In this document: positions 4,655 to 8,711 of the stretch, piece after piece
Layout of the letters: each line of letters opens with the position of its first letter
Position numbering within the stretch: position 1 is the first letter of the stretch
Assembly: GCA_035627655.1 (NCBI GenBank)
Contig: DASPLI010000001.1
Coordinates: 112,991-176,990, forward strand
Length of the DNA: 64,000 nucleotides
Source: Minisyncoccota bacterium
GTDB taxonomy: Bacteria; Patescibacteriota; Minisyncoccia; Phycocordibacterales; Phycocordibacteraceae
Direction of reading: 5' to 3'
Made by a program: the position numbers and the translations under genes
The notes under the pieces: generated by a model
What the model saw: only the letters and a program-made list of their open reading frames with translations
Told to the model about the DNA's origin: nothing
Database searches by the model: none

Positions 4655-4768
<114 letters not shown>

Positions 4769-5130
4769 TAGGCGCGTTACGCTCTAGAACAACAAATGCA
4801 TAGGTATAGAAAACACAGAACAGATTGTGACATTCACGATTCCGCACAGAAAACTGGACATATTAGTACTCCTCGGCTGAACGCATTGCTGCGTGTGCAC
4901 CTAGAGCCTATCAACGTAGTAGTCTGCTACGAGTCTCATAACGATTCCTAATCTTGGAGCGAGTTTCCCGCTTATATGCTTTCAGCAGTTATCTCAACCC
5001 GACATAGCTACCCAGCAATGCTCTTGGCAGAACAGCTGGTAGACCAGAGGTCAGTTCACCCCGGTCCTCTCGTACTAGGGGCAAGCCTCCGCAAGAATCA
5101 ACGCCTGTAGTAGATAGGAGACCAACCTGT

Positions 5131-5496
5131 CTCACGCACCATGTTATTTGTGTACTCCGGTTGCTCGGAGGGTCGGACTATAGCTTCGCGAGTTCTTCGC
5201 GACTGACGTTTAGTCTCTACGGGCGCTTTCGCTTCCCTCGGAATCATCCTGTTCCTTGCAGGACTTTTCCGATACGAGTCAGTTCAATCCTATATATCCC
5301 TATATAGGACCGCCGTGATGTGTTGGTTCCTTTGATCTCGCAAAATGCTTTGAACGCGAGTCAAAATCTTATTGTGTTAGTTCTTAGCTAACACATATAT
5401 AGACGAAAAAACATTTATTAGGGATTCTGATAACAATAAACTCAATGGGATTCAGACGGTGAGGGCCTCGATTCCGAAGAATCAAGAACCCTCACG
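5131..5496 (-). mobile_element. ORF-less group I intron in 23S rRNA, in the peptidyl-transferase-centre segment (equivalent to E. coli ~U2593/A2602); boundaries ±6 nt
   Basis: Exon sequence GCGAGCTGGGTTCAGACCGTGAG resumes as CGTGAGACAGGTTGGTC about 360 nt later (CGTGAG repeated at both junctions). The insert is AT-richer than the flanking rRNA. It carries a textbook group I core: GAGACTAAACG (P7 5' strand), hairpin GTCGCGAAGAACTCGCGA (P8), CTATAGTCCGAC (P7 3' strand), a CTCCG-AGCAA-CCGGAG hairpin (P9), and ends in G. A 12-bp P1-like pairing AGACCGTGAGGG/CCCTCACCGTCT lies at the 5' junction. No ORF >60 aa lies inside. Confidence 0.65.
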
Positions 5497-6910
5497 GTCT
5501 GAACCCAGCTCGCGTACCTTTTTAATTGGCGAACAGCCAAACGCTTGGGACCTTCTCCAGCCCCGCGCTAAGGTGAGCCGACATCGAGGTGCCGAACTCC
5601 GCCGTCGCTATGGACGCTTGGGCGGAACTAGCCTGTTATCCCCAGGGTAACTTTTATCCGTTAATCTCTGGCCGCATCTAAGGCGGACCATCGGTTCACT
5701 ATGCTCTGCTTTCGCATCTGCTCGGCATGTACGCCTCGCAGTTAAGCCCTCTTATGCCATTACACTATCGGCACGGTTTCCATTCGCGCCTAGAGGACCT
5801 TAATAGACTCCTCCGTTACTTTTTAGGAGGATAGCGCCCCACCAAAACTACCCGCCACGCACTGTCCCGCCGTAGTTCTATACGGAGGTTAGGAACTGCA
5901 CACTTGAAGAGTGGTATTTCACTGGCGACTCCACGTTCCCCGAAAGGAACGCTTCAAAGTCTCCCACCTATGCTACGCATCAAGCACGCAGCCCCAATAC
6001 GAAGCTGTAGTAAAGCTCCTGGGGTCTTTTCGTCTAACTACAGGTAACCGGCATCTTCACCGGTAGTGCATTTTCACCAAGCGAGTCCTCGAGACAGTTC
6101 CCCAGTCATTACACCATTCGTGCACGTCTGAACTTACCAGACAAGGAATTACGCTACCTTAGGACGATTATAGTTATCGCCGACATTCACCGGGGCTTAT
6201 ATGGCCTAGCCAACAATCCGAAGACCGTTGACCGTCCATGCTTGACCTTCCGGCATTGGTCAGGTGTCACCCCCTATACATCCTCTTACGAGTTCGCAGG
6301 GAGCTGTGTTTTTGGTAAACAGTTGCCAGGGAGTCTTTCGCTGCGGCCCGTATTGCTACGGGCAGGCCTTATTGCGAACGTACGGCCGCTATTTTGCCGA
6401 GTTCCTTGAGGACCTCTCACTTGTTCGTCTTGGTCTTCTCGACCTGAGCACCTGTGTCGGTTTGCGGTACGGGCGTCATATGTTGAAGCTTAGAAGATTT
6501 TCTTGGAACCGCGCTCTCTCTGCTCCTCCCCTCCGAAGAAGGAAATTGCCGCTTCGCTCGGAGTAATGCCTACCGGATTTCCCTAGTAGACCTCCTCACT
6601 AACGGACCCCAATCCAATAAGGGGCCAAAAATACAGCAGTCCGTCTCTCCATCGCACATATGATCGGTCACGGAATATTAACCGTGTGTCCATCGGGTGC
6701 GGCTTTCGCCATCCCCTTAGGCCCGACTAACCCGAAGATGATCACCATTGCTTCGGAAACCTTGCTCTTTCGACGTGCGGGGTTCTCACCCGCATTGTGG
6801 TTACTTGTACCTGCATTCTCACTTCGCAACGCTCCAGTATGGGTCACCCCTTTACCTTCATCGCAGATGCGAACGCTCTCCTACCGCTTGCACGCTTCAT
6901 AGAGGGCGCG

Positions 6911-7150
6911 AATCTTGTTCGCGCAAAATGTTCATGGTGCCGGGGGCTGGAGTCGAACCAGCGACCTCCCAGGGTTTTAGACCAAGGCGCTCTACCTGCT
7001 GAGCTACCCCCGCAACCATAAACCGACCGGGTGCGAGGGTCGGACATCTGCCGACCCTCGCAGCTAACGTATACCAATCACCTTGCGGTAACGGACGACA
7101 TTAGCAACGCCACATATGGGCGTCCTCGGTATTTTGAGAGTATTTTTCAA
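6911..7150 (-). other. Intervening sequence (~240 nt) replacing the tip of 23S helix 45; it contains a tRNA-like element (minus strand, 6943-7018)
   Basis: Flanks CACGTTTCATAGAGGG / CCCTCTATGAAGCGTG are complementary and correspond to E. coli GCGACGC-TTAT-GCGTTG (helix 45, ~1164-1185), between GCCGAAACTGCGG and GGTAGGAGAGCGTTC. Inside are nested perfect hairpins (GCGAGGGTCGG-CAGATGT-CCGACCCTCGC; GCGCGAA-CAAGA-TTCGCGC) and GCGGGGGTAGCTCAGCAGGTAGAGCGCCTTGGTCTAAAACCCTGGGAGGTCGCTGGTTCGACTCCAGCCCCCGGCACCA. That sequence has an acceptor stem (one G·G mismatch), canonical D arm, T arm (GCTGG-TTCGACT-CCAGC) and an encoded CCA, but its anticodon arm does not fold canonically. Confidence 0.55.
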
Positions 7151-7850
7151 CCCTCTATGAAACGTGCAAACCCGCAGTTTCGGCACTACGCTTAACCCCG
7201 ATTATCTTCGGCGCACGGACCCTCGATGAGTGAGCTGTTACGCTTTCTTTAAATGGTGGCTGCTTCTAAGCCAACATCCTCATTGTCAAAGGATCCGCAC
7301 TTCCTTGTGGATATACTCAGCGTAGATTTTGGGGCCTTAACTGGCGATCTAGGCTCTTCCCTTCTCGACCGATGGAGCTTCGCCCCCATGGTCTAACTGC
7401 CGTGCTGTAACTTCCGGTATTCGGAGGTTGATAGGAACAACGAGATTTCTCCCTGTTTGTCCCTTCCAGTGCTCTACCCCCGGAAGGATCACACGACGCC
7501 AGCCCAAAAGCTGTTTCGGAGAGAACCAGCTATTACAGTGTTCGATTAGCTTTTCACTCCTTACCACAAGTCATCCCAAGGCGTTGTACGACCAACGGGT
7601 TCGGGCCTCCATGTGGATTTCTCCACACTTCACCCTGCTCATGGCAAGCTCACACTGCTTCGGGTCGTATATATGCCACCGGCGCGCTATTCACACTCGG
7701 TTTCCCTATGGCTCCACCCAGTAACGGGCTTAGCCGAAGCGACATATATACACTCGCAGGCTCATTCTTCAATAGGCACGCTAGGATGGACCGGAGCCCA
7801 CCCTAACCCTTTGTAAGTACACGGTTTCAGTTCTATTTCACTCCCCTCTC

Positions 7851-7884
<34 letters not shown>

Positions 7885-8711
7885 TCACTATCGGTCTTAT
7901 GAGATATTTAGCCTTACCGGTTAGTTCCGGCAGATTCACCCGGGCTATTCGTGTCCCGAGCTACTCAAGAACAGAAGCACATAAGTCGTCATACATTTCG
8001 TATACGGGGCCATTACCCTCTGGGGCGCTGCTTCCCAGCAGCTTCTACTATGTAGACGTTTTGTAACTCATGCCATACAAGTATGGCGCTTCTGCCTTAC
8101 AACCCCTACTGACGAATCAATAGGTTTGGGCTTCTCCCGTTTCGCTCGCCGCTACTTAGGGAATCGCGAGAGTTGTTTTCCATTCGTACGAGCATACGCA
8201 CGAACGGAAAACAACTCGCTTTTGTTTTCTATTCCTCCAGGTACTGAGATGTTTCACTTCCCTGGGTTCGCTCCTTCTCCATACGGAGTAAGGTGATCCT
8301 TTCTGGATCGGGTTTCCCCATTCGGACATCTCCGGATCACAGGCTATAAGCCGCCTCCCCGGAGCATTTCGCAGGCTAATCACGTCCTTCATCGCTCTCA
8401 TAAGCCTAGGCATCCACCGTGCACCCTTCAGTGTTTCCTGTGCGGAAACCTGAATCCCACAATCTTTTCTGTGTTTGCACTTCTCCTCACGTTCTTGCGA
8501 AACGTGAGTCGATTACCTATGCATGTTGTCAAAGTTCTGTGTCCCTTCAAACGAAAACCGCCCCTCGGGGCGGTGTTCGTGTTTGCACACGAGGCCTTAG
8601 GGCCGTACCCGCTCCGATAAATAAGTGGTGTTCGTAGTGATAGACACGTAGGGGCTAGTCTATAGGAGCGGAAGAGGCATGTCAAGCGACCTGAAACGGC
8701 CTAGGTACGGG

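Follow-up and report, generated by a model that had tools for sequence, protein, structure and literature searches.

An ORF-less group I intron inserted at L2593 in a 23S rRNA gene of Patescibacteria type and its covarying second pairing with the 5′ exon

We analyzed a continuous stretch of 64,000 nucleotides, referred to here as the window. An Rfam scan of the whole window identified a 23S rRNA gene on the minus strand followed by an adjacent 5S rRNA gene, the two together covering positions 4658–8440. No 16S rRNA was detected in the 64-kb window by the same scan, and the rRNA operon appears to be split. The 23S rRNA is 81–88% identical to that of Patescibacteria MAG loci. Its gene measures 3596 nt compared to the 2925 positions of the model, and mapping against E. 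coli rrlB locates several insertions in it. One of these lies in the domain V strand GGGUUCAGACCGU...CGUGAGACAG, where 363 nt of the gene take the place of 6 model positions in the cmscan alignment. A global MAFFT alignment with E. coli rrlB defines this insertion as 357 nt (window positions 5493..5137) situated exactly between E. coli positions 2593 and 2594, and removal of the insert restores the conserved 23S sequence ACCGU-CGUGAGACAG. A preliminary description, made from the sequence alone, had already placed an insert in 23S domain V around U2593/A2602, in agreement with both the alignment and the cmscan gap. The coordinates it gave, 5131–5496, contain this insert but also take in 6 and 3 exon bases at the two ends, the intron itself covering 5137–5493. 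Since that description quoted the sequence in RNA sense, the feature lies on the minus strand. The gene, the intron and the bases flanking its splice sites are as follows:

4845–8440, minus strand: bacterial 23S rRNA gene (Rfam LSU_rRNA_bacteria, 2366 bits)
5137..5493, minus strand: group I intron of 357 nt at site L2593, starting with GAGGG and ending with AUGGUG (MAFFT alignment, cmscan gap, RF00028 match of 35.2 bits, same-site homologues at at least 120 loci)
5494..5497, minus strand: end of exon 1, CCGU (E. coli 2590–2593), the exon strand of P1, with 5494 being U2593, the U of the 5′ splice site (sequence; pairs with GCGG in 51 of 51 class members)
5137, minus strand: terminal (omega) G of the intron, exon 2 beginning at 5136 (C2594) (sequence, E. 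coli alignment)

The same 23S rRNA gene differs from that of E. coli at further places. Insertions of 52 and 51 nt are found on the minus strand at E. coli positions 227/228 (8170–8221) and 272/273 (8074–8124), respectively, and deletions at 1744–1769 and 2792–2807. Another insertion, at the classical intervening-sequence site in helix 45 (6888–7171, minus strand), holds a tRNA-like module at 6935–7013, whose acceptor, D and T arms are intact, whose CCA is encoded and whose anticodon arm is aberrant and oversize. This module scores 47 bits with the Rfam tRNA model and is called tRNA-Leu(UAA) by ARAGORN; the stem of helix 45, in extended form, surrounds it (CAUAGAGGG...CCCUCUAUG). Nine further tRNA matches lie at 51.8–60.7 kb of the window. 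We also scanned metagenomes for a T-loop located 45–75 nt upstream of the conserved 23S segment 1186–1200 and obtained nine contigs. Six of them (L122, L123, L126, L127, L129 and L130) carry one or two tRNA matches of 42–66 bits, above the gathering score, inside the LSU rRNA and in the same place. These include Lys-UUU together with Ala-UGC in L130 and Trp-CCA inside the 23S of L126. The 23S of L123 (1388–7148) spans 5.7 kb and contains several insertions, another group I intron among them. A tRNA module in helix 45 looks like a recurrent arrangement across metagenome contigs. The arrangement suggests a fragmentation of the 23S rRNA by tRNA-processing enzymes, or perhaps tRNA genes that are housed in the rRNA gene. 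We found no precedent for a tRNA module in helix 45 of 23S rRNA in the literature searched, and the part of the survey of rRNA insertions in CPR bacteria that we consulted (PMC11270868) does not mention tRNA.

For comparison of the domain V insert with other L2593-type introns, as the preliminary description had proposed, we searched a collection of species-representative genomes with the pattern TATAGTC-N(23–53)-GCGTGAGACAGKT. The search recovered at least 120 loci. Among the matches listed, the introns at this site are 247–840 nt long and belong mostly to Patescibacteria/CPR MAGs, but also to Acidimicrobiaceae, Omnitrophota, Chloroflexota, Armatimonadota and a Thermosynechococcus MAG (L107). 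The closest relative among them is an intron of 304 nt from a Parcubacteria MAG (L062), which is 72–78% identical. At least three structurally distinct classes of introns occupy L2593 in these loci (L002–L121). In the first, which is of cyanobacterial or Acidimicrobiaceae type, the 5′ end carries the guide (CACUGCGU). The second is a simple Patescibacteria type with GGCGG located 5–30 nt from the splice site. The third, to which the window intron belongs, possesses an expanded L1 domain and an additional helix with the exon, termed helix X below. Between classes the guide covaries with exon position 2590, AACGU being accompanied by GCGU and ACCGU by GCGG. Three loci show peculiarities of their own: the L2593 intron of L094 contains a tRNA-Arg-like structure at about 5282–5357 (ARAGORN), the search pattern occurs twice, at a distance of 97 nt, at the 3′ end of the L092 intron, and the 23S of L060 contains in another place (5915–6122) a further group I intron that is Rfam-positive.

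The splice sites follow from the comparison of uninterrupted and interrupted genes. E. coli reads ACGU-CGUGAGACAG at this position, and the recovered interrupted genes all read CGU at the end of exon 1, then an intron ending in G, then CGUGAGACAG; the G that precedes CGUGAGACAG in all homologues is a feature imposed by the search pattern. As E. coli and all homologues share the exon arrangement ACGU/CGUGAG, exon 1 ends with U5494 and the intron ends with G5137, directly before C2594. An intron of 5493..5137 thus combines the exon-terminal U2593 with a terminal G5137 and yields a ligated product of universal length and sequence. The GAG with which the intron begins constitutes the first bases of its own hairpin, and most relatives start with UCAG, UUAG or CAA instead. 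The preliminary description had regarded the splice sites as ambiguous, as CGUGAG is repeated at both junctions, and had held the exon-terminal U and the terminal G to be irreconcilable. This conclusion was mistaken since it assumed a single surviving copy of CGUGAG; U5494 and G5137 both hold, and the E. coli alignment fixes the site at 2593/2594. For the annotation of this gene, an intron has to be entered at 5137–5493, and the sequence of the mature rRNA is unambiguous.

The description had further supposed that the splice sites lie within the repeated CGUGAG, that P1 is formed by a local hairpin (AGACCGUGAGGG/CCCUCACCGUCU) and that a non-canonical pair is used (U-A, or no terminal G). We consider this arrangement most improbable. 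It would either drop three universally conserved bases (CGU) of helix 93 or violate the requirement for an omega G. In addition, the E. coli alignment gives 2593/2594 without ambiguity, and most homologues lack the GAG repeat and are nevertheless interrupted at the same site. The local hairpin itself exists and is stable, and is considered again below together with the guide sequence.

We then asked how well the insert conforms to a group I catalytic core. We aligned the part from the guide to the 3′ end of 20 compact relatives (alignment A1) and evaluated on it the structure P2–P9 as read from the window sequence. The elements of the core in the window are:

5288..5309, minus strand: P2 hairpin with a GGGA (GNRA-type) loop (9 of 9 pairs compensatory)
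5203..5282, minus strand: block of P3–P6 plus the 5′ strand of P7 (pair counts in A1)
5282–5278 with 5207–5203, minus strand: P3 (100% paired, all 5 of 5 pairs covarying)
5272–5267 / 5243–5238, minus strand: P4 (P4/P5 85.7% paired)
5264–5259 / 5251–5246, minus strand: P5 (P4/P5 85.7% paired)
5237–5221, minus strand: P6 with a GAAA loop (93.6% paired)
5217–5211, minus strand: 5′ strand of P7, G-A-GACUA (invariant in A1)
5175..5202, minus strand: P8 hairpin (5202–5186; 5 of 6 pairs covarying), J8/7 and 3′ strand of P7, UAGUCC (5180–5175; invariant in 20 of 20)
5155..5170, minus strand: P9 hairpin with a GCAA loop (100% paired, 4 of 5 pairs compensatory)

In A1, 89.9% of the cells are paired, compared to 32–40% when the partners are slid by 1–3 columns, and none of 500 shuffles reached the observed values. 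Compensatory changes on both sides occur in 32 of the 48 pairs, a count that is uncorrected for shared ancestry. The guanosine-binding helix P7 (G-[A]-GACUA/UAGUCC) is the same in all 20 sequences. The core P3–P9 with its P3/P7 pseudoknot and a P7 with bulged A is thus present, and the window copy keeps all 57 invariant columns of A1 and forms every core helix. This core is compact, extending from P2 to P9 without P5abc and without P7.1/P7.2; only AAC separates P7 from the 3′ strand of P3, and no nucleotide separates the latter from P8. The loops L2 (GGGA) and L9 (GCAA) are of the GNRA type, as in other compact introns. The core strings quoted in the preliminary description are all present, and its assignments of P7, P8, the P7 3′ strand and P9 are correct.

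The covariance search it had recommended is less straightforward to read. In a scan of the insert alone (381 nt), RF00028 (Intron_gpI) matches 5154–5334 on the minus strand over the full model with 35.2 bits (E = 1.6e-7), which lies below the gathering score of 50. Intron_gpI gave no match at the gathering threshold in the whole window, nor any in a scan of 531 nt at E ≤ 10. Because the outcome hung on the filters of the scan, we did not count the negative search as a refutation. Relatives of the same class exceed the gathering score, namely L121 with 66.9, L117 with 65.4, L095 with 64.6, L093 with 58.7 and the closest relative L062 with 57.6 bits. The identity of the insert as an ORF-less group I intron in a CPR-type 23S rRNA is accordingly borne out by the covariation of the core, the Rfam-positive homologues and the insertion site. 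In the survey by Tsurumaki et al. 2024, the Rfam model recognised only 45% of the 23S insertions (PMC11270868). As the gathering threshold misses the window copy while its relatives pass, surveys based on this threshold undercount the rRNA introns of CPR bacteria.

The low score could also be indicative of a decayed intron that no longer self-splices and is either retained in the rRNA or excised by nucleases like an intervening sequence, leaving the 23S rRNA fragmented. With RF00028 the window copy scores lower than any of the relatives tested (35.2 vs 51–67 bits). It has lost the homing endonuclease gene and, compared with its closest relative, shows two additional AT-rich hairpins and an extended 3′ tail; moreover, other insertions in the same gene are probably excised by nucleases. 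We judge decay to be very unlikely, though, given that all 57 invariant columns and every core helix are kept. An unspliced or broken helix 93, beside A2602, is expected to inactivate the ribosome. Furthermore, classical intervening sequences are located in helices 9, 25 and 45, unlike the insert at L2593 (PMC11270868). An RNase III-type intervening sequence would be an extended stem in one of these helices with no ribozyme core; the insert, by contrast, sits in the helix-93 strand and contains a covarying group I core.

Upstream of the core, the intron contains a guide sequence and a long 5′ domain, which together with the exon bases facing them comprise the following elements:

5498..5506, minus strand: GGGUUCAGA of exon 1 (E. 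coli 2581–2589), exon strand of helix X (2582–2589 paired in 51 of 51)
5461..5493, minus strand: hairpin H1 (GAGGGUUCUUGAUUC UUCG GAAUCGAGGCCCUC), beginning with intron nucleotide 1 (MFE folds)
5457..5460, minus strand: linker of 4 nt, ACCG (class consensus ACAG), opposite CCGU in a local rod-like fold (exactly 4 nt in 39 of 51)
5448..5456, minus strand: element A, UCUGAAUCC, a second 5′-exon-binding sequence and intron strand of helix X (conserved in 51 introns; covaries with C2586U and G2588A)
5319..5447, minus strand: AT-rich peripheral part of the L1 domain (comparison with L062 and other relatives, MFE fold)
5314..5318, minus strand: P10 guide UCACG, complementary to CGUGA of exon 2 (sequence; CACG just 5′ of GCGG conserved across the class)
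5310..5313, minus strand: internal guide GCGG, intron strand of P1, with G5313 opposite U2593 (invariant columns in A1; pair counts)

The guide UCACG-GCGG (5318–5310) lies directly before P2 and pairs with both exon ends, forming a P1 of CCGU/GCGG with a U·G wobble at the splice site and a contiguous P10. The sequence CACGGCGG is conserved across the class, its GCGG and CACG being invariant and complementary to both exon ends; as the class was selected by CACGGCGG and the element A motifs, pairing of 100% in these places is partly so by construction. Since the CCGU exon bases are invariant and offer no covariation, P1 is supported by complementarity. The bases following GCGG (UC, 5309–5308, intron positions 185–186) covary as the first pairs of P2 (A1 columns 13/36 and 14/35). 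P1 therefore has only 4 bp, which is unusually short for a group I intron, and a P1 of 6 bp formed by GCGGUC and overlapping helix X was rejected on the same grounds. In the simpler relatives GGCGG and the splice site are separated by just 5–30 nt that hold no further element, whereas in the window copy the guide follows about 180 nt downstream of the 5′ splice site. Hence, the segment from 5493 to about 5319 represents an expansion of loop L1.

These pairings also bear on the local hairpin as a candidate for P1. The 12-bp pairing noticed in the preliminary description consists of the top of helix X (AGA/UCU), the linker opposite CCGU and the base of H1 (GAGGG/CCCUC). As a P1 it would contain a C·C mismatch and place U2593 opposite an A, and the guide pairing conserved among the homologues is a different one. 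It is true that G2592 and U2593 face a complementary linker base in 94% and 88% of the class members, respectively, so that the linker can pair with CCGU at 3 of 4 positions; at C2591, however, 96% of these pairings show a mismatch. The simpler relatives have no such hairpin and only the GGCGG guide. By contrast, the canonical U·G guide and the contiguous P10 are invariant, and the canonical junction would read ...ACCGUCGUGAGACAG. A non-canonical 5′ splice-site pair does not need to be invoked.

We next examined the expanded L1 domain. Its layout of H1, linker and element A (consensus UCUGAAYCC) is common to 51 introns, and in MFE folds of the relatives intron nucleotide 1 pairs 4–6 nt before element A in 47 of 51. 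Two hairpins of the domain, at about 5394–5374 and 5365–5331, are absent from L062. No pairing partner was found for the conserved L1-domain stretches GAG / GAACCAAC / AAGACAUCA, and a candidate pairing of GAAUCC (5453–5448) with the GGAUU after P2 was rejected since it is not conserved in L062 or other relatives. Element A pairs with exon positions 2581–2589 to form helix X, and eight of these positions (2582–2589) are 100% paired in the 51 introns. Variation in the exon is matched in the intron: the exon change G2588A is accompanied by a C-to-U change of the element in 10 of 10 cases, and additionally in 6 loci missed by the motif search, and C2586U by a G-to-A change in 3 of 3. The corresponding Fisher p-values are 8.6e-10 (G2588A) and 4.8e-5 (C2586U), without correction for shared ancestry, and this covariation spans about 57 related introns. 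Since helix X and P1 share a continuous exon strand and element A lies 5′ of the guide, both helices together would form an H-type pseudoknot that engages 13 exon bases.

Helix X may alternatively belong to an inactive conformer, in which it sequesters the 5′ splice site jointly with the linker and H1 as a folding or timing switch, the active state consisting of a P1 of 4–6 bp alone. The continuous rod formed by these three elements is indeed predicted to be very stable (−42.5 kcal/mol including the exon) and is a possible competitor of P1, the linker can pair in part with CCGU, and GCGGUC of the window could extend P1 to 6 bp, which would overlap helix X. Against this stands that bases 185–186 (UC) covary in P2 and not in P1, and that helix X and the 4-bp P1 occupy separate bases and can thus coexist. 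The covariation of helix X is a sign of selection and is compatible with either role, which is the only aspect in which this alternative departs from our preferred explanation. We regard the inactive conformer as rather unlikely.

Taken together, we consider it highly probable that the insert, located at L2593 in a 23S rRNA gene of Patescibacteria type, is a group I intron without endonuclease, which would be removed by canonical two-step splicing and would use helix X beside P1. Judged from the sequence, self-splicing would start with the attack of an external guanosine after U2593 (5494), which would be held in the 4-bp P1 by the U·G wobble. The freed exon would then attack after the terminal G (5137), with the CGUGA of exon 2 aligned by the P10 guide UCACG. 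The expected product, ...GACCGU-CGUGAGACAG, would restore the helix-93 strand of the peptidyl-transferase ring, with a predicted ligated junction of ...GGGUUCAGACCGU-CGUGAGACAGGUUGG. Helix X probably offsets the very short P1 and probably keeps the 5′ exon, which otherwise forms part of helices 90–93, out of rRNA folding until ligation. The linker may occupy the splice site as a placeholder until it is displaced by the guide.

The preliminary description had reported the lack of a homing-endonuclease ORF. We confirmed that no ORF of more than 49 aa overlaps the insert, and the ORFs of 20–49 aa inspected showed no likeness to an endonuclease remnant. The position where relatives carry such genes is P6, which is capped by a GAAA loop without any ORF in the window copy. 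Four introns of the same class (L040, L065, L067 and L077) contain ORFs of 143–173 aa in P6; the two of these that were scanned, L040 and L067, match Pfam LAGLIDADG_1, and the ORF of L067 additionally matches the structures of I-CreI, I-MsoI and I-CvuI with E-values of 1e-12 to 1e-29. The insert sits at 23S position 2593/2594, the homing site of I-CreI and thus the target of the endonuclease family that the L067 ORF matches. With its P6 closed by GAAA and free of an ORF, the window copy lacks an endonuclease and presumably cannot move by itself.

Introns at position 2593 have been documented for both cyanobacteria (PMC1995217) and CPR bacteria (PMC11270868), and the insert is an unexceptional representative of this known kind of intron, i.e. 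one more ORF-less copy at a documented hot spot. In the survey by Tsurumaki et al. 2024, 2593 is one of the group I sites of CPR 23S rRNA that are frequent and associated with LAGLIDADG_1 (PMC11270868). The 23IS12 introns described there resemble the window intron in the type of host clade and in position; as in the class of the window intron, ORF-bearing copies contain LAGLIDADG_1, and they are located around the peptidyl-transferase centre. Unlike these, the window copy is ORF-less and remains under the Rfam gathering score. The survey, as far as its consulted part goes, sorts insertions by Rfam matches and ORF content and does not give their RNA structure.

The L2593 introns of Synechococcus C1/C9 and Thermosynechococcus elongatus contain LAGLIDADG genes (Haugen et al. 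2007, PMC1995217). The known Thermosynechococcus intron was recovered by our search pattern as well (L107). The cyanobacterial introns share the site, the exon context and the I-CreI-type homing system with the class of the window intron, but are about 745 nt long, carry the homing endonuclease gene and have a P7.1/P7.2 extension of about 65 nt and a short P2 (PMC1995217). Their guide is found right at the 5′ end (AAAUCAUUGCGU...), whereas that of the window intron is placed behind a domain of about 180 nt. The P7.1/P7.2 extension of subgroup IA-type L2593 introns is absent from the window intron, and because only AAC lies between P7 and the 3′ strand of P3, the latter belongs to a structural class different from that of the cyanobacterial introns. 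Site L2593 is also occupied by the organellar intron Cr.LSU of the Chlamydomonas reinhardtii chloroplast, which is 888 nt long, encodes I-CreI and is usually assigned to subgroup IA3. Its likeness to the window class lies in this site and in the I-CreI-like endonucleases of the ORF-bearing relatives.

The covarying second exon-binding helix and a P1 within a pseudoknot are the only part of these results that could interest ribozyme specialists. We tentatively propose that the Patescibacteria L2593 class possesses a split guide, in which a 4-bp P1 would be stacked as an H-type pseudoknot on the 9-bp helix X, with H1 starting from nucleotide 1 and a displaceable linker of 4 nt, and that this may possibly constitute an undescribed variant. 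If so, group I ribozymes would recognise their substrate in a structurally new way, and this might couple splicing to the folding of the peptidyl-transferase ring. In the literature searched for P1 extensions and exon-binding pseudoknots, we came across no account of such a split arrangement and found only engineered trans-splicing ribozymes. In the extended guides of these ribozymes an antisense duplex outside P1 strengthens the hold on the substrate, as helix X may do here (PMC3895272, PMC6155759). The engineered guides are artificial and located at the 5′ end of the ribozyme, whereas element A is natural and located in loop L1. The engineered guides contact their substrate on the 3′ side of the splice site. 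Element A, in contrast, binds the exon 5′ of P1, which would generate the pseudoknot.
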